Source of the DNA: an uncultured Clostridia bacterium
Lineage (GTDB): Bacteria > Bacillota > Clostridia > Christensenellales > UBA1242
DNA length: 64,000 nt
Assembly (NCBI GenBank): GCA_945921465.1
Contig: CAMEKS010000001.1
Coordinates: forward strand, 2,745-66,744
Reading direction: 5' to 3'
Shown here: positions 30,401 through 62,285 of the stretch, one piece after another
Layout: every line of letters begins with the position of its first letter
Numbering within the stretch: the stretch's first letter is position 1
Program-made: the position numbers and the translations under genes
Notes under the pieces: generated by a model
Database searches by the model: none
The model's input: the letters and a program-made list of their open reading frames with translations, nothing else
Told to the model about the DNA's origin: nothing

Positions 30401-30896
30401 CATCTAGTATGCCACTAAATTCGTTGATAGGTGCCCAGAATCCATTGTTAACATTAGACATATCTAGATTGGCTACCAATTTGTAACAAGCATCAGCAGG
30501 ATATTCATCACTACGACCAATCATAGCCAATTGCTCTGGCTCACTAATGTAATAAGGATTATCTATAGAACCATCGCCAACCAAGACATCGCAGAATAGA
30601 TTACGATATCGGCTATTAGTTGTAGTAAAAGTTACTCTAGCCACACCACCAGCTTTGGCCACAAATAAACCGCTGCTGAAGTCTACTATTGATGTATCGT
30701 TGGTAGAATTAGTTATAGATGTAGTTTTCTTAGGGTTCTTACGTATTACATCAATGCTGAATTCGTCGCCCACATTAACATACATTACCTCTGCGGAAAG
30801 AGAAATAGTCTCTCTGGTAACTACTACAAAAATCATAGATACAGATACTACTATTGCCACAAATACGCTGAAGAATAATACCCAAAACTTTTTCAT
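27459..30896 (-). CDS. Large surface protein: N-terminal signal anchor, Ig-like domain, many GLUG-type repeats and Listeria-Bacteroides (flg_new-like) repeats
   Basis: Repeats of the form xAGIVGxxxxGxIxNCxNxGxI / GGIAAKNIGGKIDN (GLUG-like). The central segments HNLTIIDATTGK...IRFATNQDGTGIPYYNTSKMPNENLTIYVIYS resemble flg_new repeats. Start at Met9 (MKKFWVLFF) behind GGAGGAAA. Confidence 0.75.
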   Translation of the reverse strand: MKKFWVLFFSVFVAIVVSVSMIFVVVTRETISLSAEVMYVNVGDEFSIDVIRKNPKKTTSITNSTNDTSIVDFSSGLFVAKAGGVARVTFTTTNSRYRNLFCDVLVGDGSIDNPYYISEPEQLAMIGRSDEYPADACYKLVANLDMSNVNNGFWAPINEFSGILDGNGFTISNIDIDKDSYLVNNSTDTSIDFSNGGLINTIAANGKVYNLKLANYYAVGEFDNFGTIAAINYGLVERIEIRDAFLNVTADAIGGVVGKNISTNGIDSVNIATISKCSSNVIIGQTESVTDKGVNYEYTGVNGIIGGIAAKNIGGKIDNTYAIGRVYLAGSKITFGGIVGDNQFATLSQGNSTMISAAIVCNSYSAINLYTAKVDASANETIGGVIGQNLDAIEIVTNGKISLESNTNNLSGLYYNKENLNVSESATVKRFAGVGRNMLADKTVSEVTTAEKAGFVQGLTSANMRLQSSFVPGKRVVKTYSTTGNLLATREIAGNWDFGNVWNISTAVNNGFPTLTYTMQDDAEDGITTDFEIVNAYEFVISQGDINEKDAIRKIATIVVKDSNNKVVASTNSASYALGVAEGFRVNITNNSVIIYNLDGKAFYTITFENVSSNYKFNSFEINEEIVANNNVVNGDTSLDIWFRSTRHNLTIIDATTGKTKLTATVTEGESIASYINTITKQYSSYAYIRFATNQDGTGIPYYNTSKMPNENLTIYVIYSNNNNPNYTPDTDVEGDYIISDTDSWNEYVVNYGDNENLTFALANSFTVTSKFLPCENFAGTFNGNGYTIIVKGTLYDFALFDQVADTATINNLTVKYSSPTVRSLNNSNYFGGIANESCGFISDCEVSGTINFSKIAKIGVAGIVGNMQDGQITNCDNSANITAKTQFVAGIVANFEAGTITDCNNIGNINNTSTSVDEYDIIEHGTVISAGIVGLMNGNSRQLVEDCNNRGKITCCVSGSNNGGNAAGIVGYLTIGTVQNNSNSGTISSNYQSAGIVAMMTDGYVKSNINSGNISAITSDTKCNALAGGVVGKVYKSGTITNNTHSTGEIVAKCSKYNATEAYAGGIIGAMFNGGKATNNKLTSICYISATGVFTYAAGGCGRVISGAIFSTATFPANWSSIYSRYVTSTCAQKGYKSPTSNNI

Positions 30897-30990
30897 AAAT
30901 TTTCCTCCATTTCTCAACAAAACTTAATTTATTTTCAAAAACAGCATTATTTCTCTTGACAAAATTTATATTTTTATATAAACTTACCCT

Positions 30991-33737: not shown

Positions 33738-33812
33738 TGGAGTGTAGCCAAGCGGTAAGGCCCGGGATTCTGACTCCCGTATGCGTAGGTTCGAATCCTA
33801 CCACTTCAGCCA
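33738..33812 (+). tRNA. tRNA-Gln (anticodon CUG), CCA encoded
   Basis: Hand-folded cloverleaf. Acceptor stem TGGAGTG/CACTTCA, anticodon stem CGGGA/TCCCG with loop TTCTGAC, T arm GTAGG-TTCGAAT-CCTAC, discriminator G followed by CCA. Confidence 0.9.
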
Positions 33813-46738: not shown

Positions 46739-47153
46739 TATTCTCTAACTCCTTATGTATTGTATCGTAGCCAACATTCAATATCTCGTCTAGTCGAGGT
46801 TGGTTGCCTATAAGATATAAATAACCAATTAATGCTTCGAATCCAGTGGCACGTTTATAGTCTATTACCTTGGCATTTTTAGCTATATTGTTAGTTTTGT
46901 AATTTCGTGCTCTCTTAAAGATTTTAGTCTCTTCTTCGGTTAACATCTTAGATATCTTGGATATAATTTCACTCTGTCCGCTTGCTTTGACAAAGTTGGT
47001 TGTCAACTTGTGTTGCAGATTAACATTAACCTCTTCGTCTAGTACAATTCTTTGTCTAATGTAAAGGCTAAAAACAGCATCACCCACAAAAGCCAGGCTC
47101 TGAGGATTAAGATTGATGGCTATTGATTTGTCAATATTGTTGATATCAAACAT
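46719..47153 (-). CDS. mrnC: Mini-ribonuclease III
   Basis: LAFVGDAVFSLYIRQ and FKRARN...ATGFEALIGYLYL are typical of Mini-III. It overlaps the rlmB start. Confidence 0.85.
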   Translation of the reverse strand: MFDINNIDKSIAINLNPQSLAFVGDAVFSLYIRQRIVLDEEVNVNLQHKLTTNFVKASGQSEIISKISKMLTEEETKIFKRARNYKTNNIAKNAKVIDYKRATGFEALIGYLYLIGNQPRLDEILNVGYDTIHKELENNATNRG

Positions 47154-47573
47154 ATTATTTTGACCTAATGTAAAATTTTATATTTTTTTTAGCAAGTTAT
47201 ATTGTGACGGCCTTGCAATCAATATACTATACCAATATTAGACACACTGGTCAGTATGTACCACTATAGATTAAATGATATATATATACAAATATATATT
47301 ATCATAACATAGGTATCAAAGTCCACAATTTTTGTTGTTATTTTGATGGCTTAACAGATAAACGAATTTTAGATAGTTCAACGGACGATTATTTATTTTT
47401 CAGGCGAAGATAGTCGACTTGAATACAAGGTGGTAAGAATTAGACTACAGTTCAATTATGTATTTAAGGGCAATAAGCGCAAGTGTAATATTGTCGAGCA
47501 TTGCCAAAATTGTTTGCCAACGGGTAAGGAAATATGAGATAATATAATGTGTCTTTTGGGGACAAATGTGATT

Positions 47574-47818
47574 TGATATTGAATTAACATCAGCTTTGCT
47601 TGAATATACTCTCGCTTTGCTTCGTGTGCATTCATACAAAACTTCCGATAATATAATCTATGTGATGTTGCTTTGCTCACTTTGTTCGCAAATCAATTTG
47701 CTAAATGCAAATCCGTTGTCACAACGGCATCCTGATTGAATTAACATCGGTTATATACAAGAGAACCTATCGGGTATGTTTGTTTATAACTTCCGATATT
47801 ATAATTATTCGGAATGTA
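47574..47818 (+). repeat. Structured modular repeat, locus A (variant X module, then L, then X); flank 47440-47573 may hold degenerate remnants
   Basis: Hand alignment to loci B, C and D. Shares TTTGCTCACTTTGTTCGCAA, GGCATCCTGATTGAATTAACATC, ..GTTTGT.T.TAACTTCCGATATTATAAT. The strand given is the one favoured by G-U pairs. Confidence 0.8.
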
Positions 47819-47892
47819 TGAAACATATTGTAGAACAATGAAATTACAAAAGCCAAAGGCACAATGTGCAACAAAGGAAATTGAAGAAAATT

Positions 47893-50076
47893 ATGGAAAT
47901 TAATGAATTATTGGCTCAAGAATTTAGTATGTCACTTAATCACGCAAACAATATTATTGCGCTGATGGATGAGGGGGCGACTATCCCATTCATCGCCAGA
48001 TATCGTAAGGAGATGACGGGCAGTTGTGACGATCAGACTTTGCGTGCGTTTTACGACAGGCTTAATTACTTAAGGAACTTAAATGAGCGTAAAGAATCGG
48101 TTATTGGCATTATTACCGAACAGGGCAATATGACCGAAGAAATAATGAATGCATTGAACAATGCCGCCACCCTAACCGAGATAGAAGATATATATAGACC
48201 ATTTAAGCCAAAGCGAAAGACGAGGGCGACAGTGGCTGTGGCAAAGGGTTTGCAACCATTAGCGGACGCAATTATTAAGCAGGACAAGTCGGTTGATTTG
48301 ATGGCATTGGCAGAGACTTTTGTGTCTGAAGAGAAAGATGTTAAGAGTTCCGAGGAAGCATTGCAAGGTGCTAAGGACATTGTGGCAGAGTCTATTTCGG
48401 ACAACGCAAATTTGCGAAAAATTTTGCGTGAAATGCTGCAGAAAAAAGGTTTTGTGCAATGCAAGTTGGTCGAAGAAGAAGAGAATGCTCCTACTTATGA
48501 GATGTACAAAGATTATAATTCACCAATTGACAAAATGCCATCTCACCGAATTTTGGCAATCAATCGTGGAGAGAATGAGAAGTGCTTGAAGGTCAGCTTG
48601 ACATTGAATGAAGAATTGGCATTGGGGGAGATATACAAAGAGACTATTAAGAAAAATTCGCCATATGAACAATTGTTAAAAGAAATATGTCAAGATTCTT
48701 ATGACAGGTTGATTTTCCCTAGTATCGAGAGAGAAGTAAGAAATGAAATGACCGATCGTGCTAACGAGCAAGCAATTAAGATGTTTGAGGTTAATCTAAG
48801 ACCTCTTTTGATGCAGGCACCTCTAAAAGATAAAGTTATTTTGGGATTGGATCCTGCATACAGAACAGGTTGCAAGATTGCAGTTATAGATAATCACGGC
48901 AATGTGCTAGATACAGCTGTTGTATATCCCACACCACCCCAAAACAAGATAGAAGAAGCAGAGGCCACTCTAACCAAATTGATTATGAAACACGATGTTG
49001 ACATAATATCTATTGGCAACGGAACTGCGACCAAAGAGAGTGAAATTTTTGTAGCCAATTTGATTAAGAAGTTGCCAAGGAAAGTGACATATGCAGTAGT
49101 TAATGAAGCAGGTGCATCGGTATATTCTGCTAGCAAATTAGGTGCTGCTGAATTCCCTACATTTGATGTTGCATTGCGTAGTGCGGTTAGTATTGCTCGT
49201 AGGTTGCAAGATCCATTGGCAGAGTTAATTAAAATAGATGTCAAATCAATTGGCGTAGGACAATATCAGCACGATATGCCTCAGAACCGATTAACCGAAG
49301 TGTTGGAGGGAGTGGTAGAAGACTGCGTTAACTCGGTTGGCGTAGATGTTAATACTGCCAGCCCTAGCCTGCTAGGCTATGTGTCGGGACTTAATAGCGG
49401 AATAGCCAAGAGCATAGTAGAGTATCGCAAAGAGAATGGCAAAATTAACAATAGGCAGACGCTATTAAAAGTTAACAAATTGGGAAATAAAGCATTTGAA
49501 CAATGTGCAGGTTTCTTGCGAATAGTAGACGGTGATAATGTGCTTGACAATACCGGAGTACATCCTGAGTCTTATGAGGCGGCAAATAAATTGTTGAAAT
49601 TATTCGGAATGACTACCAGCGATGTATCTAACGGAAATGTAAAACATTTGGCAGAGTTGGTTGCTGCTAAGGGCGAAGAGTCAGTTGCCAAGGAGATTGG
49701 TGTAGGAGTTCCTACTTTGACAGATATTGTTAACGACTTAATTAAACCAGGTAGAGATATAAGGGATGAGTTGCCTAAGCCAGTACTGAAGAGCGAATTG
49801 TTAGGAATAGAAAATTTGAAACCTGGTATGGTTATAGATGGCGTAGTGCGTAATGTAATTGATTTCGGTGTATTCGTGGATATATCTGTGCATCAAGATG
49901 GCTTGGTTCATATATCTGAGATTAGCAAAGATTATATCAAGCACCCAAGTGAAGTATTGAAGGTTGGCGATATAGTTACTGTTAAGGTAATAGGAGTAGA
50001 CCTGGCCAAGAAACGAATATCTCTAACCATCAAGGGAGTCACCGAAGAAGACCTTGCTAACAAGGTGGGGAATTAA
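47893..50076 (+). CDS. tex: Tex-like transcription accessory protein (YqgF/HhH/S1 domains)
   Basis: N-terminus TIPFIARYRKEMTG, a YqgF-like core and a C-terminal S1 domain (GMVIDGVVRNVIDFGVFVDI...GLVHISE). Start at ATG 47893 (Met10 of the track ORF). Confidence 0.9.
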   Translation: MEINELLAQEFSMSLNHANNIIALMDEGATIPFIARYRKEMTGSCDDQTLRAFYDRLNYLRNLNERKESVIGIITEQGNMTEEIMNALNNAATLTEIEDIYRPFKPKRKTRATVAVAKGLQPLADAIIKQDKSVDLMALAETFVSEEKDVKSSEEALQGAKDIVAESISDNANLRKILREMLQKKGFVQCKLVEEEENAPTYEMYKDYNSPIDKMPSHRILAINRGENEKCLKVSLTLNEELALGEIYKETIKKNSPYEQLLKEICQDSYDRLIFPSIEREVRNEMTDRANEQAIKMFEVNLRPLLMQAPLKDKVILGLDPAYRTGCKIAVIDNHGNVLDTAVVYPTPPQNKIEEAEATLTKLIMKHDVDIISIGNGTATKESEIFVANLIKKLPRKVTYAVVNEAGASVYSASKLGAAEFPTFDVALRSAVSIARRLQDPLAELIKIDVKSIGVGQYQHDMPQNRLTEVLEGVVEDCVNSVGVDVNTASPSLLGYVSGLNSGIAKSIVEYRKENGKINNRQTLLKVNKLGNKAFEQCAGFLRIVDGDNVLDNTGVHPESYEAANKLLKLFGMTTSDVSNGNVKHLAELVAAKGEESVAKEIGVGVPTLTDIVNDLIKPGRDIRDELPKPVLKSELLGIENLKPGMVIDGVVRNVIDFGVFVDISVHQDGLVHISEISKDYIKHPSEVLKVGDIVTVKVIGVDLAKKRISLTIKGVTEEDLANKVGN

Positions 50077-50236
50077 CCAAAAAACTATTTTATTAATATC
50101 GTAAGATATTTATAATCGCACCTGCAAAGAAGATTGTATATAGCTGATGTTAATTAATTTTTGGATATTATTGTCCTGCTGCAGATTTTTGATAAATTGC
50201 AATAGAATTAGAAATAGAATATTTGAATAATATACA

Positions 50237-50278
50237 AAAGCCATTATTAGAGAGTGCTCTAATAATGGCTTTTTTTTG
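50237..50278 (+). terminator. Rho-independent terminator after tex
   Basis: GCCATTATTAGAG-agtg-CTCTAATAATGGC followed by T8. Confidence 0.85.
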
Positions 50279-50345
50279 TTACTATATTTGATGACCTACA
50301 ATTTTATTTAAGTCGGTTGTGTTTTAGCAAATGGGGAATATATAT

Positions 50346-50828
50346 TTATTGAGTCTTTTTGTTAAGATATGCCATTAGTTTAGCAGTGGCATCGCTGCTA
50401 GTATGGGTAGATTCTTCTTTGTTAACTAGCCTTTCAATTTCCCACATACATTTTACAAATCTATTTAATTTGTAAGTCGTAGTCTCGGTGTCTGCATCGA
50501 GCGTAATTATGCCATCTGCAAATTGGCACTTGTATTTATTACAGGCGTCTGCGACAATGTCATCAATTCTAACTACGTTGGCAAATTTTTCTACCACTGC
50601 GCCAAGGTCTGTAATGGTGTATTCGTCGGATGTGCTTAATAGTCCCATATTTTCTTGCTCTTCGCTACGCTCTAGCACTACTTCGGTTTCATTTTCTATC
50701 TTAATTGCGATAGTTATAGCGGTGCCGTCTTCGTAGTAAGCGGGATATGCCAACATATATAGCCCATTGCCATAATTAAGCTTATATATGCTTTGATTAA
50801 TTTTTTCTAAAATATCATTTATTTTCAT
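50346..50828 (-). CDS. Hypothetical protein, possibly DUF1828-like
   Basis: 160-aa ORF. N-terminal pattern ...YPAYYEDGTAITIAIKIE...EYTITDLGAVVEKF recalls DUF1828 proteins as I remember them. Weak call. Confidence 0.5.
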   Translation of the reverse strand: MKINDILEKINQSIYKLNYGNGLYMLAYPAYYEDGTAITIAIKIENETEVVLERSEEQENMGLLSTSDEYTITDLGAVVEKFANVVRIDDIVADACNKYKCQFADGIITLDADTETTTYKLNRFVKCMWEIERLVNKEESTHTSSDATAKLMAYLNKKTQ

Positions 50829-51237
50829 AATTACCCCATTATGTTTTAATTTTATGATAACAATTTATAATAACAAATCTACGAGATGTTAACTTGCTTA
50901 TGCGTCTGCCTGTATCTCAATCTGACAATTGCAATTTTGATATAGTAGCGGCACACTGAGTTAATAACCTAGAGATATATACAAGTAATGCTACGCATAT
51001 ATCTATTTATAGTTACCAAAAAATATTAATTTAATATCATATTAATATTATAAACAGACAATCAAAATATTATCTGTTTCCTCAGTTGCTCACATTTTGC
51101 ATAGCGACAATCATCAAATCATAATATTACTTATGATTGCAAGTATACAGTTACAATTATATTCTATCACAATATTTGCAGTAATATATAGCAGTAATTC
51201 ACTATTTTTAATTTTTTCAATTTGATAAATCAAGGTC

Positions 51238-52365
51238 TTAGTTGCGTTCCATTTCTTCTTTGGAATGGAAGAATGTCGCTATCTGCGGAGCGGTAAACGA
51301 AGCGCTTGATTTTTTTAATTCAGCATTGCTATTGATTCGGTCAATTTGCTCGTGACATCTACCTTCGAATGAACCCATTTTGCCAGAATATTTTAGTAGT
51401 GGAATAACAGTTTCGGAGATTGGATTGAAGCTATCTGCACTGCTAAATACGGGCTCGCTACTAGGTATATTTGCAGCGTTGCGAACAGCAAGTAGTGTCT
51501 GGCCAAAAGTCAACTCTACATCTCTACCTACACTCATTGCATCTGTGTGGTTATATGAATAAGGTTTGAACGCTACTCCCATAGCGTTAGGTAAATGAAT
51601 ATGAGAACCATATACATCTACGCCGTGTTTTAATACTTGACTATTGCTTTTGTCTAAGAAATTCTTGTGTGGTGCTACTGGGTTATAATCACATCGATAT
51701 AATTCTACAGGGATTAATGTGTCTTCGCCAACATCATTGTGACCATTAATAAATGCCTTAAGTGTGGTTGATGCACCAGTAACTGGGTAGTCAACAGTGC
51801 TGCCTGTTATACGGAACTGGCTGCCTGCAATAGGAATAGCGATGGTTTCCTTAAATAATACTAAGTTGCCTTCGACATTACCGGCGAACCAATTGGTATA
51901 ACAATCTAGATATGTATCTGTTTTGCGTACCGTATCGCCATATAGATCGGCTTTTGGAACAGAGTGGAAATATGTAGTTGGGCACAACTTTATTTTGTCG
52001 CACGCCAACATTTTCTCATACTGTAGTTGAGTAAAAGGCATAGGATATACTTGTTTGTCTTCTTTTACATACTTTAGAGTTTGCGGGATGGAATGCATAG
52101 ACATATCGTTACTCAATCCATAACCTTTGGATATTTTTAATCCTAACTTACCGCTTACAAAACTGCTTATTTCATCCAAACATTTTTGTACATGAGTCAA
52201 GCACCAATCTACATATTCTTGCGATCGATTTTGTTTATAATAATTAGTCTTGTTGTTGTCGTTAATTAGGCTTTGGCGAAAAGCGGTTGTGCAAAGTTCA
52301 TTCCATTCTTTTTCGCTTAAATTTTTTTTGGTTAGTGTGGTTATGTCTATTTCTTTTTTAGTCAT
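51238..52365 (-). CDS. Hypothetical protein (375-aa ORFan) downstream of repeat locus B
   Basis: Clean ORF with RBS GAGGG. No motif I recognise, and no RuvC/HNH/RT/recombinase signatures. Confidence 0.6.
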   Translation of the reverse strand: MTKKEIDITTLTKKNLSEKEWNELCTTAFRQSLINDNNKTNYYKQNRSQEYVDWCLTHVQKCLDEISSFVSGKLGLKISKGYGLSNDMSMHSIPQTLKYVKEDKQVYPMPFTQLQYEKMLACDKIKLCPTTYFHSVPKADLYGDTVRKTDTYLDCYTNWFAGNVEGNLVLFKETIAIPIAGSQFRITGSTVDYPVTGASTTLKAFINGHNDVGEDTLIPVELYRCDYNPVAPHKNFLDKSNSQVLKHGVDVYGSHIHLPNAMGVAFKPYSYNHTDAMSVGRDVELTFGQTLLAVRNAANIPSSEPVFSSADSFNPISETVIPLLKYSGKMGSFEGRCHEQIDRINSNAELKKSSASFTAPQIATFFHSKEEMERN

Positions 52366-52547
52366 TCTCGCCCTCGCTTATATATTAGGATTTTATCATA
52401 TTCGCTTACTAATTGCAAGTAGTTATTTTATAATTGAGACGTCAAAAAGACTACTAGTATAATCAATTTTCAATGATTTGTTCGTTATAATAATTCGAAA
52501 TATAAATAAGACTTTTTGAGTTAATACAAATATAAATGCATTATTAA

Positions 52548-52924
52548 CGGTAGTGCATATTGGGCGATAGCCCCATATTGTATAGATAATAAGTATATAT
52601 CATCCAATGCAGCTAGTCGTAGATTGTGCTCGAGGAAATATTATCCAAAGTAGTCGCAAGACACCTTGAGATAATATGACGAAGGAAACAATCTATGTGT
52701 CAGACGACGCTAGTCGGCTGGGATGCACGGTAGTGCATATTGGGCGATAGCCCAATTACACATAGATTATAATATCGGAAGTTAGAGACAAACGTACCCG
52801 ATAGGGTCGCTTGTATATAACTGATGTTAATTCAATCAGGATGCCGCTAGTATTAGCGGTAGGTTGCGATTAGCGAACTGAGTTGCGAACAAAGTGAGCA
52901 AATCTACATCTCATAGATTATAAT
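52548..52924 (-). repeat. Structured modular repeat, locus B (L-X-Y-Z-truncated Y, read on the minus strand)
   Basis: The reverse complement aligns base-for-base with locus D over about 330 nt (L, X, Y, Z and the first half of the second Y). See findings. Confidence 0.9.
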
Positions 52925-52926
52925 TG

Positions 52927-52955
52927 TTGACAAAATGCTAAAATGTTGCTAAATT
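52927..52955 (+). promoter_or_regulatory. Sigma-A type promoter candidate for glnS (TTGACA-17-TAAATT)
   Basis: TTGACA 52927-52932, an exact 17-nt spacer, and TAAATT 52950-52955, 34 nt upstream of the glnS ATG. It starts immediately after repeat locus B. Confidence 0.6.
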
Positions 52956-52988
52956 ATTAACATAATTTTGCAACATTTGCGAGGAAAT

Positions 52989-54659
52989 ATGTGGGATAAT
53001 ATTGTACCAGATAATTTTATAGAAGAAGAGATACTAAAAGATTTGAAATCGGGAAGAGCCAAAGAGGTGATTACTCGTTGTCCGCCAGAGCCAAGTGGCT
53101 ATTGGCATATTGGTCATTGCAAAGCATGGATAATAGATTTTGAGACGGCGAAGAAGTTCGGTGGATATACTAATTTGCGTATGGACGACACCAACCCTAC
53201 CAAAGAGGATGGTGACTTTGCGAACTCTTATGTTAATGACTTAGAATGGCTAGGATATACGCCTAAGAATGTAATCTATGCTAGCGAAGCATATTTTGAA
53301 GATATATATAAAATTGCCGAAGATATGATACGTGACGGCAAAGCATATGTATGTGAATTGTCGGCAGAAGAGGTGTCTCAGACCAGGGGTACATTGTCGG
53401 AGCCTGGTATCGAGAGCCCATATAGGAACCGAAGCGTAGAAGAGAATTTGAAGTTGTTTCACGATATGCGAGATGGCAAGTTTGAAGATGGAAAGGCGAC
53501 ACTTCGTGCCAAGATAGATATGGCTCATCCTAATATGAATATTAGAGACCCTGTGATGTATCGGGTAATGAGAGCAACTCACTACAAGACGGGCGACAAG
53601 TGGTGCATCTATCCTATGTATGATTTTGCTCATCCTATGGAGGATGCTCTTGAGGGTGTGACTTATAGTCTATGCGATATCAGTTTTGAGGATCATAGGC
53701 CTCTATATGACTGGTTTATTGCAAATGGTTGGAAAGGTGAATATCCTCCTAGGCAGATTGAATTTTCTAAACTTAATTTAGAGAATGTTTTACTAGGCAA
53801 GAGATATCTTAAGAAGTTAGTTAACGAAGGCAAGGTAATGGGTTGGGATGACCCAAGATATTTAACAATTGTTGGGATGCGTAGGCGTGGTTATACAGCA
53901 GAGGCAATCAAGGAATTTATTAAGTCTTTGGGTTTGTCGAAATGTGATAGCACCATTCCATTCAATGCTCTAGAATATTATATTCGTGCCGACCTTAATA
54001 TGAAGGCGACTCGTGCAATGGCTGTGCTTGATCCTCTAAAGGTTGTAATAACCAATTATAGTGGAAGCGAAGAAATAGAAATTGCAAATAATCCTAATGT
54101 TGAGAATGCGGGCTCACATACTTCGCGATTCTCTAATACTATATATATTGATGCCGATGATTTCTCACTTAACCCTCCTCCAAAATACAATAGATTGGTG
54201 CGAGGTGGAATGGTTAGATTGAAAGGTGCATACATTATTCGTTGTAATGATGTTGTATACAAAGACGATGGCTCTATTGATCATTTGGTTTGTGAATATT
54301 TACCTAACACCAAGAGTGGAAACGACACTAGCGGAATTAAGGTTAAGGGAACAATACATTTTGTTTCACAAGACAACTGCACCGAAGTCACTATTCGAAA
54401 TTTCAAGAATTTAATCAAAGATGAGTATTTAGACCCAAGCAAAGCGTTGGCAGATGGTGTAGATGTAGATGAACTGCTTACCCCAGACTCGCTAACTGAA
54501 ACAACAGCGTTGGTAGAGAATTATTTGCTAAGTGCTAAACCTGAAGATAAATTTCAATTTATGCGCAAAGGTTATTATACACTAGACAAAGATTCAACTG
54601 CAGATCACTTAATATTTAATAACACTATTTCTCTAAAAGACGGATACAAGCCTCAATAA
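52989..54659 (+). CDS. glnS: Glutamine--tRNA ligase
   Basis: Class I HIGH motif (PEPSGYWHIGHCKA), GlnRS-type catalytic and beta-barrel anticodon-binding domains, and typical length. ATG 52989 follows GAGGAAAT (the track ORF starts at an upstream TTG). Confidence 0.9.
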   Translation: MWDNIVPDNFIEEEILKDLKSGRAKEVITRCPPEPSGYWHIGHCKAWIIDFETAKKFGGYTNLRMDDTNPTKEDGDFANSYVNDLEWLGYTPKNVIYASEAYFEDIYKIAEDMIRDGKAYVCELSAEEVSQTRGTLSEPGIESPYRNRSVEENLKLFHDMRDGKFEDGKATLRAKIDMAHPNMNIRDPVMYRVMRATHYKTGDKWCIYPMYDFAHPMEDALEGVTYSLCDISFEDHRPLYDWFIANGWKGEYPPRQIEFSKLNLENVLLGKRYLKKLVNEGKVMGWDDPRYLTIVGMRRRGYTAEAIKEFIKSLGLSKCDSTIPFNALEYYIRADLNMKATRAMAVLDPLKVVITNYSGSEEIEIANNPNVENAGSHTSRFSNTIYIDADDFSLNPPPKYNRLVRGGMVRLKGAYIIRCNDVVYKDDGSIDHLVCEYLPNTKSGNDTSGIKVKGTIHFVSQDNCTEVTIRNFKNLIKDEYLDPSKALADGVDVDELLTPDSLTETTALVENYLLSAKPEDKFQFMRKGYYTLDKDSTADHLIFNNTISLKDGYKPQ

Positions 54660-54752
54660 CATTTTTGGATAAATATGGCATAGTATGTAGTGTATTGTGT
54701 GCACAGTAACCTGTTATTAGTGGCGAGGTCAAAAACTTGTCAGTTTAGAAAA

Positions 54753-54790
54753 ATATCAGACATAGGCAATTCCTGTGTCTGATATTTTTG
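54753..54790 (+). terminator. Rho-independent terminator after glnS
   Basis: ATATCAGACATAGG-caatt-CCTGTGTCTGATAT followed by a T-run. Confidence 0.8.
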
Positions 54791-54991
54791 TATTAATTGT
54801 GGTTAATTGTATTTTTTAATCTGATTATAATTGATTAGCGAATTATCCGAGATATTGTGAATAAATATTAATTCGTAGAAGATAAATCAAAAGAATTAAA
54901 ATGCTGGTTAGTGGTAAAAAGTATACATTAAGATGTAATTATGACAGTAGATTATGCAGTAAATGGTGGCTTTTTGGCAAATAATCAGCAG

Positions 54992-55207
54992 TTATCCACA
55001 ATTTCACAAGTTTTGTTTATTAATTTTTTTGAATTATTATGCAAAAATTAAAAATTTGAAAAATTTTTGTGAAAAAATGTCGAAAATCACCAAAGTTATC
55101 CACTTATCCACCACTTATCCCCGAGTTATCCACAGCCAATGTTCGTAAAATGTTTTATAACGACGTGTTTTTATGTCACAAAGATGTGTTTTGAATAGTT
55201 ATCCACA
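54992..55207 (+). promoter_or_regulatory. DnaA-box cluster with AT-rich spacer (candidate oriC segment or DnaA-titrating cluster)
   Basis: TTATCCACA at 54992-55000, 55126-55134 and 55199-55207. TTATCCACT 55096-55104, TTATCCACC 55104-55112 and TTATCCCCG 55115-55123. All are on the same strand. 55001-55095 is AT-rich with reiterated GAAAAAT-type motifs. Confidence 0.75.
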
Positions 55208-55223
55208 TAGTTGTACACAAGTT

Positions 55224-56699
55224 TTATGGACATACATATGTTGGGATTGTGTCAAATAAGAAATCCGTACCCATATTTAGTGTGGCAGTTTCGTCATCTA
55301 TTATTGGAATATCTGGGATATTGTCTTCTACGCCTTCGATCACAATACCCGCTTGTGGCTGATATATTTCGTGTCGTATTTCTTTGCGGTCTATTACCTC
55401 ACCATTGCGAGAGGTAATAAGATATGATTTGACATCAAATCCTCCTCTAGGGTAGGTTAATCTATAAGTCTCGCCCTTAAACAAAACCTTGTCTGTATAT
55501 TCCTTATTCACGTCTGGAACTATTCGATCAGGCAGTGGTGATAAGGTGGCTAATGTTTCGCTCTCTGTGCTGTATTCTACGTCTAGTGGGTAAGAGTATA
55601 TCTCTACAGTAACGTCATCTGCAGTGCTGCTGGTTTTGATAAATATTGGGTGCTCAGATGTGTTAGTAAATTTTAGGTCTGAAGCGCCGGATACCATTGC
55701 ATCTAGGGCTAGAGGTACATATCTAACTGGGAGCGTGTGCTTATGAACTTCGTCTATTTGTATGCCAGATAGCAGTAGTGCATTGTATAGGGTGGTGCTG
55801 GCTTGGCACACACCTCCGCCAATTCCGTCAACAAACCTGCCATTTTGTATAATTGTAGCGATTTGATATCCATTATCTAGTGTATGTGGCGAGGTGACTT
55901 CGTTAAAAGAAACTGACTGGTTTGGTTCTATTCTCATTCCGTTAAATTTGGATAGTGCTAATTTTACATTGTTTTTTCTTCCACCAGTACTGTCACCGAC
56001 CGATGTGGAGAATTTGGCGATTCTATTGGTTAATGATTGATTGTATTCTTCACTAATTTTAGGTTCGGCATCTTCTAGCTCTAGTTCAATCAATATGTTA
56101 TTAGTTATAGCAAATTGCTTATTGATATTGCTATACAATTTGTCCCTATTTATTACTTTTCCACTAGCAGAAGGCGTAATCTGCCACATATTTGCCTCTG
56201 TCGGTGAAAATGTAATGGTAGAATCTATGGCAGGTGTCTCTATGGACTGACATATTTCTTCTATCTTTTGGTCTAGACCTTGAAAAATATAGTTAAATGC
56301 AATAGTTGTGGAACCGTCGGAAGTTGAGATTAATCCCATAGACTCTAACTTAGAAGCATAGTCGCTGTTAGAATCAGATAATTCTAATATAGATCTAACA
56401 TCAGGATTGATAGTGTAATCATCTTGGTCTATGATAAATATTTGGTCGCCTTTTTTTAGCGTCAGACTGAAGTTGTTGGCTTTGTCTGCAATGTATGACG
56501 ATACTTTTTCATATGCTTCGGCGCTAGTAATTCCTTTTAGATTAATTCCATTAATTTGGGTGTTGAATTCGCTTGAGTACGTATTGCGAAAAACATTGAG
56601 TTTGCATAGTAATATTATTAATACAACTGCTATAGCAATTATTAGTGTAGTTATAATCATCCAAAATGTTCGTGATTTTTTGCTCTTTGATGTAGACAT
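55224..56699 (-). CDS. VanW-family protein with N-terminal TM anchor
   Basis: TM helix FWMIITTLIIAIAVVLIILL and the VanW core GIGGGVCQASTTLYNALLLSG. Confidence 0.8.
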   Translation of the reverse strand: MSTSKSKKSRTFWMIITTLIIAIAVVLIILLCKLNVFRNTYSSEFNTQINGINLKGITSAEAYEKVSSYIADKANNFSLTLKKGDQIFIIDQDDYTINPDVRSILELSDSNSDYASKLESMGLISTSDGSTTIAFNYIFQGLDQKIEEICQSIETPAIDSTITFSPTEANMWQITPSASGKVINRDKLYSNINKQFAITNNILIELELEDAEPKISEEYNQSLTNRIAKFSTSVGDSTGGRKNNVKLALSKFNGMRIEPNQSVSFNEVTSPHTLDNGYQIATIIQNGRFVDGIGGGVCQASTTLYNALLLSGIQIDEVHKHTLPVRYVPLALDAMVSGASDLKFTNTSEHPIFIKTSSTADDVTVEIYSYPLDVEYSTESETLATLSPLPDRIVPDVNKEYTDKVLFKGETYRLTYPRGGFDVKSYLITSRNGEVIDRKEIRHEIYQPQAGIVIEGVEDNIPDIPIIDDETATLNMGTDFLFDTIPTYVCP

Positions 56700-57089
56700 A
56701 TTGTTAATACCTCGATGTACTTATCTTTTGTTATTATTGTGTATTTTTTTATACAAATTATGCAAAGGATGCGAGTAATAATAGTGTAATAGTTATATTA
56801 CATATTTTATATAAAATTGTTTTTACAGTAGTTATTAGTCCATTATATGACAATTGTAGATTTTGGGTGGTTTATAATATTTAGATTAATTTAGCAAAAC
56901 ACAACAAAAGCAATATATAGAATAGGTGTCAATATTTAGGATGTATATCTATATGCAAAAGAGTAGTATTACTGATACGATCTATAAACTTTTAATTCCT
57001 TTCTGATATAAAATAAGATTAAGAATCCTAGTTATAATTGTAGCAACATAATACTAGACTATATAAGTTATCAAGAGAATAAATGTACT

Positions 57090-57323
57090 TTATTTATTAT
57101 TGCCTTGCTTCTCAATCATAGACTTAAGCACTTCACGCTTAGCGTCTTCTTTTATTAACCTTATTATCCCTACGAATAGCGAAATGTAGTCCTGCTCGGT
57201 TATGGCGGGTGCAGATGGAAAAGTAAGAATAGATTTGTTTATGGGGCGGAATCTATATATAATATTATTACCTGTATTTGGTGAATTATGATTTCTAAGT
57301 TTGTTGGTTTTGAATAATTTCAT
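57090..57323 (-). CDS. Small hypothetical protein (77 aa)
   Basis: Isolated ORF in a 1.2-kb AT-rich intergenic stretch. Weak RBS and no motif. Coding status uncertain. Confidence 0.3.
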   Translation of the reverse strand: MKLFKTNKLRNHNSPNTGNNIIYRFRPINKSILTFPSAPAITEQDYISLFVGIIRLIKEDAKREVLKSMIEKQGNNK

Positions 57324-57896
57324 TTTTACCTGCTTTGTAATAATTTATTAATTTAAGTTATAGTTAATTTGATGCATAGTAGTTTTGCGATAATTCAACT
57401 GAGGCGCAAATGACAGCCAAGCAAATCAAAAGAATATAGTGTGTCATACAATAATATTTGGTGTTGACCATACCGGATTGTAGTTTTTTTAGATTTTAAT
57501 ATCGTAAGCTATATACCAATGCGGACAATATGTCATTTGTATAAAAACTGATAATTTGATTTAATTAAATAATTATTGATAATCTAAAAAAATATGTGAC
57601 ATTATCTTTATTTATTAATAACACGCAATAATTGTTGGCCGATTACTTTAATTTAATACCAAACCAATTTGACAAAAAGATATAGATTGTGTCGAATAAG
57701 TAGTCCTATATTATTAGTTATTAGCATAATAATATAATAGTTGAGCGTGCTTGCTTGATTATAATTGTAACATTTAAGAATAATTAGATGTGTTGGTTGT
57801 TAACCAAATTATAATCAATTGGCATAATAAAATTATTAAGTTTACGCACCAATAGTATAAACTCAGCATTAATTAAAGAAAAGTAAGGAGAAAAAT

Positions 57897-58835
57897 ATGA
57901 AATCAATTTGCCACTTTGTGTCTACAATAGAATATGACTTGTTGATTAATGGCGAATATATAGCTAGAGGGAAAGAAGACAGTATAGATGTGGTAATAAC
58001 CAGTGCCGAAGTGAGTGTAATGTGTGTGCCTCTTGCGACAGGGTATGGGATAGTATCTGCCAAGGTGCAGAATATCAAAAACTCTATTCTAGTCAATAGC
58101 AATGATATATCAGTTGTTCCTATGGGTAGAGGACACTGGCAGATAGAGATCAATTTTCGAAAAACATATGTGGACGCGGATTGTGATATTATTGCTACAT
58201 CAATATCCGGCAAAAACAATATTTGTATATATAACAATCCTATGGGTGTAATTGATATTTCAACTGGTTCTCTTCTTAGATTAAGAAAGAATTGTGACAA
58301 AATAGTCGCTGCCGAAATTGACATTGTGTCTGGGTGCAATGTAATAAAGTGTCAACTTATTGACAACAAGTATTATATTATTGTCATAGATGACAAATGT
58401 AAAATACTTTTTGATACTATATGTAATAGTTATGAAACTAATGAAAATAAGTGTAAAACTATTGCAGAAGTATGTGATATAGCAGGCCATGGAGTTGTCA
58501 AAACATTTGATATGACAGACAAAACTATAGATTGTTATGCCGTGTATACTGGAGAAGTAAGATATGCCAGTAGTGATAGATTAGTGCCTATGGCTATGCT
58601 GCAGAGTCTAATGGTCGGTGATAATAAATTAGCAAAATCATATTTGTGTGCAGAAATGCAAAGTATAAGTGATGATAAATTGCAACAATATTTTGGCAAA
58701 TTTGATAGAGTAGTTTATAACAGATATATTGCTGATGGCACAATTAATTATACGGTATGTGGGGAGGATTATCGTAATTACGATTTTGTAATTAAGAATG
58801 GAAGAATAGATGATATAGTAGAGGTTGTAGGATAA
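57897..58835 (+). CDS. Hypothetical protein (312-aa, Cys-rich ORFan)
   Basis: Strong RBS AAGGAG. No signal peptide and no motif I recognise. Confidence 0.6.
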   Translation: MKSICHFVSTIEYDLLINGEYIARGKEDSIDVVITSAEVSVMCVPLATGYGIVSAKVQNIKNSILVNSNDISVVPMGRGHWQIEINFRKTYVDADCDIIATSISGKNNICIYNNPMGVIDISTGSLLRLRKNCDKIVAAEIDIVSGCNVIKCQLIDNKYYIIVIDDKCKILFDTICNSYETNENKCKTIAEVCDIAGHGVVKTFDMTDKTIDCYAVYTGEVRYASSDRLVPMAMLQSLMVGDNKLAKSYLCAEMQSISDDKLQQYFGKFDRVVYNRYIADGTINYTVCGEDYRNYDFVIKNGRIDDIVEVVG

Positions 58836-59005
58836 AGTATAAATAAAATGCATATACAAGCATAGAAATACTTTGATAAAATCAATGACTTGTAGTAAAA
58901 TAAACATAGGCGATGTTGTTTTGCAATTATTAATATTTAAGTAATATTTATTCAATGCTTGTTGCAACTGTGACATCGCAAGTTGGTCTATCTATAGTTA
59001 AGTAT

Positions 59006-59155
59006 GTATAATATCTGAAGTTAGAGACAAACATACCCTAAGGGATCGCTTATATATAACTGATGTTAATTCAATTGGGATGCCGCAATCATTTGCTGAG
59101 GGTTGTGACAGAGACCACAGAGGCGAGCGAAAACGTAAGAAAATCTACATTGCAT
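59006..59155 (-). repeat. Structured modular repeat, locus C (L-X only, read on the minus strand)
   Basis: The plus strand reads ...CTGAAGTTAGAGACAAACATACCCTAAGGGATCGCTTATATATAACTGATGTTAATTCAATTGGGATGCCGC..., homologous to the X and L modules of locus B. The L part is the most diverged copy. Confidence 0.8.
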
Positions 59156-59214
59156 AAATTAAATTATAGATTTAATTGATAATAACTATAGATTTTTAAC
59201 TACAAGGGGAAGAA

Positions 59215-59898
59215 ATGTTATATATTATATTAGGGGTAATAATCTTATACTGCATAATTTTTGTGGTATCTATATTTAATTCTAATGATACACTCCAAAA
59301 ATTATATGCTAAGTATGTGAATATTCCCAATAACAAAAATTGGCAAGGAATGAATGTGGCTTTTGACGCCAGAAGATATTTTGGATTAGATGTAAAAGTG
59401 GCTATGCGCAAAGGAATAATGACTGATGCGTATAGCATTAAGGATAGAATAATAATCATTAGCGAGGATGTCTGTTATAACAATTCGATTGCGGCAGCGG
59501 CCATTGTGGCACACGAGGTCGGACACGCTGTACAGCACAAGAATAAATCCTTATTATTAGGACTTGTTAGATTTACCACTAAGTTTTGCGATATATTTTG
59601 TCGATTTGTTTTGCCTTTGTTATTGGCTGGTGCAATATTGCGACTAGCCGAAATTAATGTGGAGGTTGGCAATATATTATTAATAATTGCATTATCTCTA
59701 TGTGGGTTGAATATTATAGACAACTTCTTAAATATTCCATTAGAGAGTGGTGCTAGTAGAATAGGTTTTCGCTATCTAAAAGATAATAAAATTATATCTA
59801 AAAAAGATTATGGCAAAGTTAAGAGATTATTGAGTGTAGCAAGTAAAACATATATGGCACATTGGCTAAGAACATTGTTGCCAATTAGGAGGAAGTGA
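59215..59898 (+). CDS. Membrane zinc metallopeptidase (YugP-like family), paralog 1
   Basis: HEVGHAVQH zinc motif flanked by TM helices. RBS AAGGGGAAG. Confidence 0.8.
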   Translation: MLYIILGVIILYCIIFVVSIFNSNDTLQKLYAKYVNIPNNKNWQGMNVAFDARRYFGLDVKVAMRKGIMTDAYSIKDRIIIISEDVCYNNSIAAAAIVAHEVGHAVQHKNKSLLLGLVRFTTKFCDIFCRFVLPLLLAGAILRLAEINVEVGNILLIIALSLCGLNIIDNFLNIPLESGASRIGFRYLKDNKIISKKDYGKVKRLLSVASKTYMAHWLRTLLPIRRK

Positions 59899-59899
59899 T

Positions 59900-60607
59900 A
59901 TGATAGAATACTATGCAGCGTTGGTTGTATTTGTGCTTGCGTTGATTATAGGAACGTATGCCAATATCAAGGTTAGTACATGTTATAACAAATATTCTAA
60001 GGATGTGGCACAATCGGGGATTGTCGCTAGTGTGTTGGCAAGGCAATTGCTAGATGCATCGAATTTGAATGATATAAAAATTGCGAGAGTGTCTGGCAAT
60101 ATGACAGACTACTACGACCCACGCAAGAAAGTAATTGCGTTATCTGAGGGCGTATATGATAGTGGCTCAATTGCTGCACTTGGCATAACCGCACACGAGT
60201 TTGGGCATGCTTTGCAATACAAAGACGGCAATGCCCTTGTGAAATTAAGGAATATTCTCGTACCAATTTCTAATTTGATGTCTACGTTGGTTTGGCCAAT
60301 GCTAATAATTGGTGTATTACTAGATTTTGTATGGTTCTCTGAATCAACAATTGGACTTATTTTCATAATGGTGGCTGTAGGGGCATTTGCATTAAGTACA
60401 TTACTTAGTCTGATTACTCTGCCAATAGAGAGAGATGCCAGTAGGCGAGCGGTTAGGGTGTTGGAGCAAACGGGTACATTGACCGAAGAAGAGCTGGTTG
60501 GTGCCAAAGCGATACTAAGTGCCGCAGGTCTAACATATGTGGCGGGGCTGTTGTCGTCGGTTGCAAACTTGCTAAGGATATTGGCAATATTTGGCAGAAA
60601 CAAATAG
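59900..60607 (+). CDS. Membrane zinc metallopeptidase (YugP-like family), paralog 2
   Basis: HEFGHALQY zinc motif with the same architecture as the upstream paralog. RBS AGGAGG. The ATG lies 1 nt after the upstream stop. Confidence 0.8.
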   Translation: MIEYYAALVVFVLALIIGTYANIKVSTCYNKYSKDVAQSGIVASVLARQLLDASNLNDIKIARVSGNMTDYYDPRKKVIALSEGVYDSGSIAALGITAHEFGHALQYKDGNALVKLRNILVPISNLMSTLVWPMLIIGVLLDFVWFSESTIGLIFIMVAVGAFALSTLLSLITLPIERDASRRAVRVLEQTGTLTEEELVGAKAILSAAGLTYVAGLLSSVANLLRILAIFGRNK

Positions 60608-60792
60608 AGATAATATTGCAAAAGGCTATATTAACAATAGAAAAAGATCTCAGCAATTCGTAATAAAAATAGTATTAGACACGAACAAAAGTCAAAAAGT
60701 TAATAAAAATTGGCAATTATTATGAATTTGTTGACATTAAGTGGGGATTTGTTGGTATTTATAACATAGATGTGTTAGCATTTGAACAAAAA

Positions 60793-60828
60793 AACCAAGG
60801 CGATTATTAGGTTGCCTTGTTTTTTTTG
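60793..60828 (+). terminator. Rho-independent terminator candidate after the metallopeptidase pair
   Basis: CAAGGC-12 nt loop-GCCTTG followed by T8. Confidence 0.6.
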
Positions 60829-60887
60829 ATGCAATTATATGTATTATAATATTTGATCGAATACAATAACTTATGAAAAGTTGAGTT

Positions 60888-61338
60888 GGTTTGCCTTAGT
60901 CTGCAATTCAATTTGCTATCGCAAACACCGCCATTACTAGCGGCATCCTGATTGAATTAAAATCAGTTATATACAAGCGATCCATACTGGATACGTTTGT
61001 CTCTAAATTCCGATATTATAATCTATGTGTAATTGGGCTATCGCCCAATATGTACAGCCGTGCATCCCAGCCGACTAGCGTCGTCTGACACGTAGATTGT
61101 TTCCTTCGTCATATTATCTCAAGGTGTCTAGCGACTACTTTGGATAATATTCCTCGGGCACAATCTATTACTGGCTGCAGTGAATAGAATATATTTTTTA
61201 TCTTCACAATAGGGGGCTATCGCCCAATATGCACTATCGTGCATCCCAGCCGACTGGCGTCGTCTGACACATAGATTGAATTAACATCAGTTATATACAA
61301 GCGACCCATATTGGGTACGTTTGTCTCTAACTTCCGAT
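60888..61338 (+). repeat. Structured modular repeat, locus D (longest copy: L-X-Y-Z-Y-X)
   Basis: Contains two X modules (60948-61019, 61278-61338) and two Y modules (61020-61098, 61211-61277) as direct repeats around a unique Z segment (61099-61210). Confidence 0.9.
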
Positions 61339-61424
61339 AATATGTCATATTGCGATTAATGTTTTTGAAAAAGTAAGGGGGAATAGATTAAAAGTTATCC
61401 TAGTTATAATTGTTCTAGACTTTT

Positions 61425-62285
61425 TCAGTGTATTTTCTGGTCTTTGTTATTTGAAAAGCAGTACTCTGTTATCACATTAGATAGTGTAACTAATTGTGCA
61501 GCCGATAACGCTTCGCCACGTATTCCTTGAGGGAGTCCGCTTATAGATAGGATATTAGTGGTTGTGTCAGAGTCAAATCCGAAAGACGATTTTAGATTAT
61601 TAGCCAATGTCTTGCGACGCATTGCAAATGCAGCCCTGATAGTACGACGAAGAATTGATTGATCTACAACATCATATTTGTTAGGCACTATATCTATCCT
61701 AACGATTGCACTATCTACATTTGGTGCAGGGGTGAACATATGCCTACTAATGCGTTTCACAATTCTGGCATTGCCCATGGTTGCGATAGCGGCGGTTATT
61801 GCTCCATAGTTAGCAGTATTTTCTTTTGCGACCAGCCGCTCTGCAACTTCTAATTGTACCATAATGGTTAATGATTGTAGTTTAGTAGCATTGTCTAGGA
61901 ACTTAAAAATTATTGGCGTGGTTATGTAATAAGGAAGGTTTGCAATCATAGAATAGTTGCCATTGAAGTTAGCTTCGATGTCAGCCATCGTTTGTAGCAT
62001 AATATCTCCAAAAACTAATTTGACATTGGGTTTGGATGCAAACTTGTTGGTTAGGTACGGCTGCAGATTAGTATCTATCTCATAACTAACTACGTACTTA
62101 GCAGTATCGGATATTACATCAGTCAGTGTGCCTGCACCAGTGCCAATTTCTAGAACCTGCGATTGATTATCTATTCCCGCACATGCTACTATAGATCGTA
62201 GTAAATTTGTGTCAAAAATAAAATTTTGACCAAATTTCTTATTAAAATTGAAATTATATGCTTTTAATTCGTCTAGTATAGCCAT
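61425..62285 (-). CDS. rsmA: 16S rRNA (adenine1518/1519-N6)-dimethyltransferase
   Basis: KKFGQNFIFD, the SAM motif VLEIGTGAGTLT and NLPYYITTPI are typical of KsgA/RsmA. Confidence 0.92.
   Translation of the reverse strand: MAILDELKAYNFNFNKKFGQNFIFDTNLLRSIVACAGIDNQSQVLEIGTGAGTLTDVISDTAKYVVSYEIDTNLQPYLTNKFASKPNVKLVFGDIMLQTMADIEANFNGNYSMIANLPYYITTPIIFKFLDNATKLQSLTIMVQLEVAERLVAKENTANYGAITAAIATMGNARIVKRISRHMFTPAPNVDSAIVRIDIVPNKYDVVDQSILRRTIRAAFAMRRKTLANNLKSSFGFDSDTTTNILSISGLPQGIRGEALSAAQLVTLSNVITEYCFSNNKDQKIH

Follow-up and report, generated by a model that had tools for sequence, protein, structure and literature searches.

The 64-kb window analyzed here (contig CAMEKS010000001.1) is ordinary chromosome, about 35% GC, of an uncultured, Christensenellales-like member of the Clostridia. 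Its nearest Tex proteins, 84–87% identical, come from metagenome-assembled genomes labeled Clostridia or Clostridiales, and the GlnRS of the nearest GTDB species representative is 74% identical. The right-hand part of the window contains genes for mini-RNase III (mini-III), Tex, a DUF1828 protein, a 375-amino-acid protein, GlnRS, VanW, two Zn-peptidases, and KsgA, and the spacers beside these genes carry a family of repeats assembled from four modules, termed L, X, Y, and Z. Locus A (47574–47818, forward strand) consists of a variant X, L, and X; locus B (52547–52924, reverse strand) of L, X, Y, Z, and the first half of a Y; locus C (59005–59157, reverse strand) of L and X; and locus D (60880–61346, forward strand) of L, X, Y, Z, Y, and X. 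The strand given for each locus is referred to as the element strand. These assignments, made by blastn of the loci against the window and by MAFFT alignment, confirm almost to the base the modules and combinations proposed in an earlier sequence-only reading of this DNA. The family is real and previously undescribed, and all the tests made here place it with a kind already known, that of modular, palindromic, non-autonomous intergenic repeats.

The copies can be recovered in more than one way. The X pattern ATTGAATTAAMATCRG-N30-60-TTCMGATAWTAT has six matches in the window, against 0.00 expected from shuffles, and these matches (47578+, 47735+, 52769−, 59008−, 60951+, and 61275+) are exactly the six X copies. 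Loci B and D have ∼349 nt in common at 89% identity, in inverted orientation. The loci and modules recur, at 99.7–100% identity, in GCA_019973165.1 (contigs L001, L090, and L091), another public assembly of this organism, and are therefore not an assembly artifact of one data set. Two stretches of the same genome (L090 1–7110 and L091 1–7158) add ∼14 kb to the window, for ∼78 kb in total. Contig L091 carries SpoU, mini-III, and locus A at 99.7% identity up to ∼15 nt after the Tex ATG and continues beyond that point (L091 7159–7182, equivalent to window 47884–47907) into the interior of a MetRS-like gene, with the translation ...IDYDDFIRTTEPRHTK.... A rearrangement next to locus A, with the Tex start fused to the MetRS interior, was rejected as most simply explained by an assembly chimera, which this junction probably is; it could also be a real rearrangement in a co-existing strain.

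X and Y are imperfect DNA palindromes, as are the initial part of Z and the L hairpins. On the element strand, X forms two hairpins. It is also a quasi-palindrome whose two ends make up an inverted repeat: a manual alignment matches ∼19 of 30 terminal positions, and on R1, the covariance model built here from the X copies, the reverse-complemented module reaches 29.5 bits. Module Y comprises three tetraloop hairpins within the inverted repeat AATCTATGTGT / ACACATAGATT, which extends over 11–13 bp in two of the three full copies; 6 of the 13 pairs of the closing helix depart from pairing in one copy, the second Y of locus D. The first 75 nt of Z fold into one long hairpin, closed by TAGATTGT / ACAATCTA; the strings CTTGAGATAATAT / CTTTGGATAATAT in the arms of this hairpin are similar to the X 3′ box, CCGATAWTATAAT. 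Module L is the least conserved and least structured of the four, and only its last hairpin is common to the copies. Clean terminal inverted repeats are found in Y only; inverted ends are absent from L and from the L-X unit. The sequence-only reading had taken AATCTATGTG as the 3′ end of X, an assignment that has to be corrected: this string belongs to the next module, and L and Y both start with it. The Y-to-Z and Y-to-X junctions have GATT in common, so the modules are stitched together head to tail via a short common motif, AATC(TATGTG) / (CACATA)GATT. There is no coding capacity in the repeats, the longest open reading frame (ORF) inside them spanning 43 amino acids and not being conserved between copies; the idea that the modules contain small ORFs or encode toxin-antitoxin peptides was rejected on this ground.

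The individual copies were delimited from the alignments and from scores on R1 and on a second covariance model, R2, built from the Y copies. In locus A, all on the forward strand, the variant X (47575–47657; R1 29.9 bits) keeps the 5′ box ATTGAATTAACATCAG and the 3′ box AACTTCCGATAATAT and matches the X pattern, its central hairpin having been replaced; L (47655–47732) starts with AATCTATGTG and ends with a CCG...CGG hairpin followed by CATCC, with a blastn match of 85% identity to locus B over 157 nt spanning L and X; and the canonical X occupies 47732–47805 (R1 93.4 bits). Locus B, on the reverse strand, comprises L (52840–52920), delimited by blastn and alignment; X (52766–52839; R1 105.3 bits); Y (52686–52770; R2 111.7 bits), in which the consensus fold shows the three hairpins closed by the Y inverted repeat; Z (52593–52688), in which the long hairpin is followed by two small ones in the alignment with locus D and in the predicted fold; and the truncated second Y (52527–52592; R2 28.3 bits), of which the alignment shows the first half only. 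In locus C, also on the reverse strand, L (59079–59157; blastn, alignment) is the most diverged L copy, and X lies at 59005–59078 (R1 91.5 bits). Locus D, on the forward strand, contains L (60880–60947; blastn, alignment), a first X (60948–61022; R1 99.3 bits), a first Y (61018–61102; R2 107.7 bits), Z (61100–61200; delimited from the alignment with locus B and the fold), a second Y (61197–61281; R2 89.3 bits), whose left arm has diverged and whose own closing stem is broken, and a second X (61272–61346; R1 95.6 bits), joined to the second Y via the common GATT.

Decayed copies accompany the intact ones. An X relic at 57493–57563 (reverse strand; R1 29.2 bits, E = 0.002 over 15 kb) lies in the AT-rich spacer between VanW and a gene for a 312-amino-acid protein, with both conserved boxes recognizable. 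Another is found directly downstream of Tex at 50090–50161 (reverse strand; R1 24.7 bits, E = 0.012; 22-nt blastn match at 95%), and a third, doubtful one is located at 50956–51027 (forward strand; R1 16.8 bits, E = 0.27; 65% identity in a repeat search). The relics retain the terminal boxes only (AATTAACATCAG.TATATACAA and CTTaCGATATTA), the central hairpin having drifted. All copies lie between 47.5 and 61.4 kb; the first 47 kb of the window and the further 14 kb of the genome contain none. In a permutation weighted by intergenic length, this clustering has p ∼0.06 for the four loci and ∼0.004 for seven when the three relics are included. It hints that copies spread locally, whether through hopping over short distances or through recombination of one copy with a neighboring one.

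Two of the regions that contain relics differ from those of relatives in other respects. The VanW/312-amino-acid spacer (56700–57896), 1.2 kb long and 29% GC, holds a 77-amino-acid ORF besides its X relic, and an 811-amino-acid LeuRS-like gene, which stands between a 70-amino-acid ORF and VanW in relatives L094 and L095, is missing from it. The Tex-GlnRS interval (50346–52365), bracketed by X relics and locus B, contains different genes in each relative; here it encodes the DUF1828 protein and the 375-amino-acid protein, the latter with no Pfam domain. A defense or mobile island between loci A and B was considered and rejected, the only PADLOC match being a weak one of the DUF1828 protein to PDC-M24B (E = 8.5e-4).

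In relatives, the corresponding spacers are short and free of repeats. The mini-III/Tex spacer is 170–205 bp long in eight related loci, fetched via four Tex proteins of 84–85% identity, versus ∼740 bp here; the KsgA/Zn-peptidase spacer is 71 bp versus 818 bp; and the spacer between the Zn-peptidase gene and a gene for a 317-amino-acid protein is 93 bp versus 380 bp. In relative L094, the 71-bp KsgA/Zn-peptidase spacer holds a single bidirectional terminator only. Both L094 and L095, reached via the nearest KsgA relative (67% identical), have the order MetRS-TatD-KsgA, two Zn-peptidases, and the 317-amino-acid protein as in the window. Since relatives with the same gene order do not have the repeats, these are, on the evidence of the sequence comparison, insertions specific to the lineage, added to short repeat-free spacers. 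The tandem paralogous Zn_peptidase_2 genes themselves (59215–60607; 227 and 235 amino acids) are kept as a pair in relatives L092–L095.

Beyond this genome, no further members of the family were found. The modules are absent, by blastn and covariance models, from 93 related loci (∼1.6 Mb), among them 8 Tex, 80 GlnRS, and 4 KsgA loci. Exact and degenerate X patterns have no match in 185,579 GTDB species genomes, in JGI metagenomes, or in IMG/VR viral contigs, and blastn of locus D against plasmids and phages gives no match. A 642-amino-acid pseudo-protein composed of six-frame module translations, made to catch spurious ORFs on other copies, matches none of 5.8 billion predicted proteins. In line with the sequence-only reading, the element matches no known RNA family: a search of the whole window with Rfam 15 at gathering thresholds returns only a tRNA at 33738–33809, and a permissive search of 47000–62000 returns four sub-threshold matches, none inside the modules. 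The best of these near the modules, Prevotella-2 at 60769–60886 (forward strand; 25.5 bits against a threshold of 72.1, E = 7.2), overlaps the terminator of the Zn-peptidase gene, immediately 5′ of locus D, and most likely arises by chance. Pfam scans of the window ORFs of at least 120 amino acids, and of shorter ORFs beside the loci, detect no transposase, integrase, reverse-transcriptase, or HUH domain, in agreement with the earlier remark that no transposase, reverse transcriptase, or nuclease gene is nearby.

The four loci are placed differently with respect to transcription. A probable ancestral Tex promoter, TTGCCA-18-TGAGATAAT (47514–47547, forward strand; promoter scan), lies upstream of locus A, so that locus A is probably in the Tex 5′ untranslated region (UTR), in the sense of the element strand. 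The −10 region of this promoter, GATAATATAAT (47533–47547), is identical to the 3′ box of the variant X; in relatives, the corresponding site, ∼60 nt before the Tex gene, reads TTGGCA-17-TGCGATAAT. Farther upstream, between the mini-III start and the Tex promoter, are ∼380 bp of unique AT-rich DNA (47154–47533) that match none of the repeat modules and have no counterpart in relatives, in which the whole spacer is 170–205 bp. Locus D is located between the KsgA stop codon and a retained ancestral bidirectional terminator common to the Zn-peptidase and KsgA genes (60796–60819; terminator scan), which is outside the repeat; it would therefore be transcribed as the KsgA 3′ UTR, from the opposite strand. 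The likely transcribed strand would differ between the two loci, being the element strand at A and the opposite strand at D. Locus B is upstream of both flanking promoters, and locus C is downstream of a convergent gene. The repeats occur in both orientations and in divergent, tandem, and convergent spacers, and thus have no consistent strand or position relative to promoters, terminators, or flanking genes, a pattern familiar from BOX, RUP, SPRITE, and other repeats that are parasitic or neutral.

The copies are probably best regarded as a lineage-specific, non-coding, non-autonomous intergenic repeat family of the BOX/BIME/MITE (miniature inverted-repeat transposable element) kind that is itself likely to be mobile or recombining. 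Spreading would take place at the DNA level. One possible route is transposition in trans, with the enzyme supplied by a gene in another part of the genome; hairpins at the ends and a common sequence at the junctions would be compatible with a mechanism that is single-strand, HUH-type, or otherwise site-preferring. Alternatively, the copies may have spread by recombining homologously and converting one another. The stems would be kept either because the hairpins are what the spreading machinery recognizes or because palindromes simply get copied. A copy inside a transcription unit, as at loci A and D, would be a passive passenger forming a highly structured UTR, with possible effects on the stability of the mRNA or on termination.

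Several observations weigh against this view. All of the copies are within 14 kb of the ∼78 kb examined, and genome-wide, high-copy spread is a hallmark of such families. Simple palindrome units leave unexplained why L, itself not palindromic, always stands before X. The flanks of the X, Y, and L-X units, all of which were inspected, show no consistent direct repeat that would serve as a target-site duplication, and divergence prevents alignment of the corresponding empty sites of relatives. Scans of the window ORFs revealed neither a transposase nor a recombinase, and there is no known parent element. The only other assembly is 99.7–100% identical, hence offers no contrast of presence and absence between strains. 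Finally, the X 3′ box resembles the extended −10 promoter element of the lineage, and a regulatory origin or role is possible.

The sequence-only reading had put forward another view, that the modules are a new structured non-coding RNA family expressed from the element strand, with Y adopting a stem-closed three-hairpin (four-way junction) fold; we consider this unlikely. The predicted fold is very stable. The minimum free energy of locus D is −152.4 kcal/mol, compared with −107.6 ± 6.0 kcal/mol for shuffles (z = −7.5), which, together with the copy alignments, bears out the description of the family as modular, hairpin-dense, and intergenic. The reverse strand of locus D, however, has a z of −7.3, and the energies for element and reverse strands (in kcal/mol) are −52.2 and −59.4 for locus A, −122.4 and −123.4 for B, −25.9 and −25.1 for C, and −152.4 and −159.3 for D. 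Both strands are thus predicted to fold equally well, the reverse strand being as good or better. At the 5′ side, TATAAT occurs 7–8 nt upstream of the L start in loci A and B, but no −35 box or intrinsic terminator delimits the units. For want of a −35 box and of a terminator at the module ends, an independent small RNA gene with its own promoter and terminator was ruled out.

Base-pair changes between copies had been put forward as an argument for an RNA. The compensatory change in the inner X hairpin is real, with C-G in the second X copy of locus D and U-A in the first (alignment columns 34/44), and it gives X hairpin 2 one true compensatory pair. One G-U pair is conserved in all five of the five X copies compared, and four more one-sided transitions keep G-U pairing on the element strand of hairpin 2. 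In Y, the loop positions are variable and the stems of hairpins 2–4 almost invariant. The G-U pairs are present as described, and those of X hairpin 2 and the Z stem would be A-C mismatches on the other strand; they do not, however, single out one strand, as the L helices and the terminal X helix favor the reverse strand. When the B/D alignment is folded with RNAalifold, either strand gives 3 compensatory changes, 6–7 one-sided pair-preserving changes, and 0 broken pairs, whereas mirroring each structure onto the opposite strand produces 6–7 broken pairs. The equal counts indicate, therefore, that the G-U evidence is produced by choosing the structure on the strand that is tested.

The covariation counts are indistinguishable from those of shuffles. 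Module X has one compensatory pair, values as observed being attained by 211 of 500 shuffles; Y also has one, with 159–280 of 500 shuffles attaining such values, in a sample of 3–5 copies that is too small for a verdict. Between loci B and D, 12 of 196 paired columns differ versus 47 of 187 unpaired columns, whichever strand is considered, a contrast that may be inflated since the labels come from a structure predicted on the same two sequences and most of the unpaired differences fall in the diverged L. This contrast would fit constraint on DNA or RNA hairpins of either strand, or gene conversion among copies. The conclusion drawn earlier from the G-U pairs and the retained stems, that an RNA is made from the element strand, is therefore not upheld, the reverse strand doing equally well and the covariation being as in shuffles. 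The inconsistent orientation relative to neighboring transcription units, the lack of an Rfam match, and the absence of the family from all relatives, which is unlike a conserved functional RNA, also speak against this reading. The RNA interpretation is without strand-specific support, and the family is not a demonstrated new RNA.

It is similarly doubtful that the repeats are duplicated cis-regulatory cassettes, each a promoter plus leader, in which the X 3′ box CCGATAWTATAAT would be a portable −10 element and the hairpins would be attenuators or stabilizers of the downstream gene. This idea draws on the fact that the X 3′ box and the presumed native Tex promoter (47533–47547) both have GATAATATAAT, with TGCGATAAT at this place in relatives. 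The last X box of locus A is ∼90 nt upstream of the Tex start codon, similar to the distance of the native promoter in relatives, and the long Z hairpin has the related strings in its arms. BOX and Correia elements are, moreover, known to create promoters or alter expression (PMC3049150). On sequence inspection, however, the X box has no acceptable −35 element at 16–18 nt and no TG extension, and the X boxes match none of the 60 listed promoter-like sites (60 of 88, the 28 unlisted sites being weaker). TATAAT-like strings are common at 35% GC, the 88 promoter-like sites comparing with 72 expected. Loci C and D point into gene 3′ ends and not toward a start codon, and B is upstream of both flanking promoters.

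Two further readings are improbable as well. It is rather improbable that the modules belong to a previously undescribed mobile or functional system, either as single-strand hairpin elements that an undescribed enzyme inserts specifically at AATC/GATT junctions beside existing copies, or as structured RNAs with a four-way-junction Y that act on the RNA-metabolism genes for mini-RNase III, Tex, GlnRS, and KsgA, although insertion at AATC/GATT next to existing copies would, if true, explain both the tandem mosaics and the local clustering. Very improbable is a switch in which the inverted copies B/D (and A/B, C/D) are recombination sites that invert the intervening DNA: the 349-nt inverted repeats B(−)/D(+), 89% identical, do flank 8 kb, and GlnRS is oriented oppositely relative to Tex in relatives, but the order and orientation of KsgA, Zn-peptidase, the 317-amino-acid protein, and VanW are the same in the repeat-free L094 and L095, so that the B-D segment is not inverted relative to the ancestral state, a recombinase gene is absent from the window ORFs scanned, and both public assemblies have a single orientation; a B-D repeat-mediated inversion was accordingly dropped.

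The preferred reading, that of a non-autonomous intergenic repeat family, finds its parallels among known bacterial repeats. The likeness to BOX/BIME mosaic repeats noted in the sequence-only reading holds, the repeats being non-coding, intergenic, stem-loop forming, and variable in their combinations of modules. BOX, RUP, and SPRITE are modular, form stem-loops, are over-represented between convergent genes, and are passively transcribed (PMC3049150), and the published behavior of BIME and Correia elements is the same in kind as that of the present repeats (PMC3049150, PMC2817692, PMC3733652). Judged by architecture, the nearest system is streptococcal BOX, with features of BIMEs and MITEs. 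BOX elements (boxA-boxB(n)-boxC in S. pneumoniae; boxD/E/F in S. suis) are, as here, non-coding and intergenic in a member of the Firmicutes, are composites of a few 45–130-nt modules in variable number and combination, are predicted to form stable stem-loops on transcription, occur in both orientations, including between convergent genes, and lack both a dedicated transposase and a clear target-site duplication (PMC3049150). This likeness rests on architecture and not on sequence, and homology would be unexpected in Clostridia, which are far from Streptococcus. The main differences are that in BOX the terminal modules, A and C, are fixed and the middle one is repeated, whereas here L leads, X is next, and Y, Z, Y, and X are appended; that BOX has more than 100 dispersed copies per genome, whereas four loci and relics are known here, all within 14 kb; and that each module of the present family is a palindrome in itself, linked to the next via a common AATC/GATT motif.

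The REP/BIME/REPIN elements of Proteobacteria, mobilized by RAYT, are likewise imperfect palindromes in extragenic mosaic clusters with other short motifs; G-T pairing has been noted in REP stems, and REPs are mostly downstream of coding regions and plausibly passively transcribed (PMC2817692, PMC3733652, PMC3116915). REPs differ in being 20–40 bp long, with a conserved unpaired GTAG/CGTC tag and alternating orientation, whereas the units here are 75–100 nt long and in direct orientation within a locus. GTAG occurs in one of the three Y right arms (the first Y of locus D, CACGTAGATT) and in two of the four L starts (loci B and C, ATGTAGATT); the other Y and L copies carry ATAG or GTTG, and GTAG, where present, is inside a stem. 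A REP with a GTAG tag is ruled out by the unit size and by the unconserved tag. The window ORFs of at least 120 amino acids contain no RAYT or Y1_Tnp domain, and no GTAG/CGTC REPs are reported from Firmicutes in the survey cited above.

Bacterial MITEs such as Correia/NEMIS, RUP, and Nezha are, as here, short, non-coding, intergenic elements that fold into long hairpins and are sometimes nested or adjacent; they have terminal inverted repeats and can bring promoters or RNase sites (PMC3049150; review, PMC10969869). The present repeats depart from the classic MITE definition, as no target-site duplication was found and no related insertion sequence is present in the window. They also differ from MITEs in having clean terminal inverted repeats in Y only, and the multi-module architecture is more BOX-like than that of a single MITE. 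A further MITE-type example is bcr1 of B. cereus.

Elsewhere in the window, a 127-nt direct repeat of 73% identity (15934–16060 and 18499–18625) lies within a gene for a 1543-amino-acid transglutaminase-like protein (15405–20036, reverse strand), and a second, shorter repeat family at 15883 and 18448 has the equal spacing of 2565 nt; these probably represent internal protein-domain repeats. Two very large ORFs, of 1153 amino acids (27459–30920, reverse strand) and 1666 amino acids (36881–41881, forward strand), have no Pfam domain, and at the position matching the latter, relatives encode a protein of 1683–1686 amino acids that also has no domain.

Small modular repeats have been well described in streptococci, enterobacteria, pseudomonads, and neisseriae, and hardly in uncultured gut Clostridia or Christensenellales-like lineages. 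In the present family, an unusual spreading mechanism might be indicated by two features only, the motif at the junctions and the clustering of the loci. Fold z-scores near −7 on both strands mean that such repeats could pass for novel RNAs in structure-based screens, and repeats of this sort can break or confuse metagenome assemblies. In this organism, they have inflated intergenic spacers three- to eleven-fold and have probably added hundreds of hairpin nucleotides to the UTRs of housekeeping genes (Tex and KsgA). The family shows that genomes of uncultured gut Clostridia or Christensenellales-like bacteria also carry fast-evolving, species-specific palindromic repeats.

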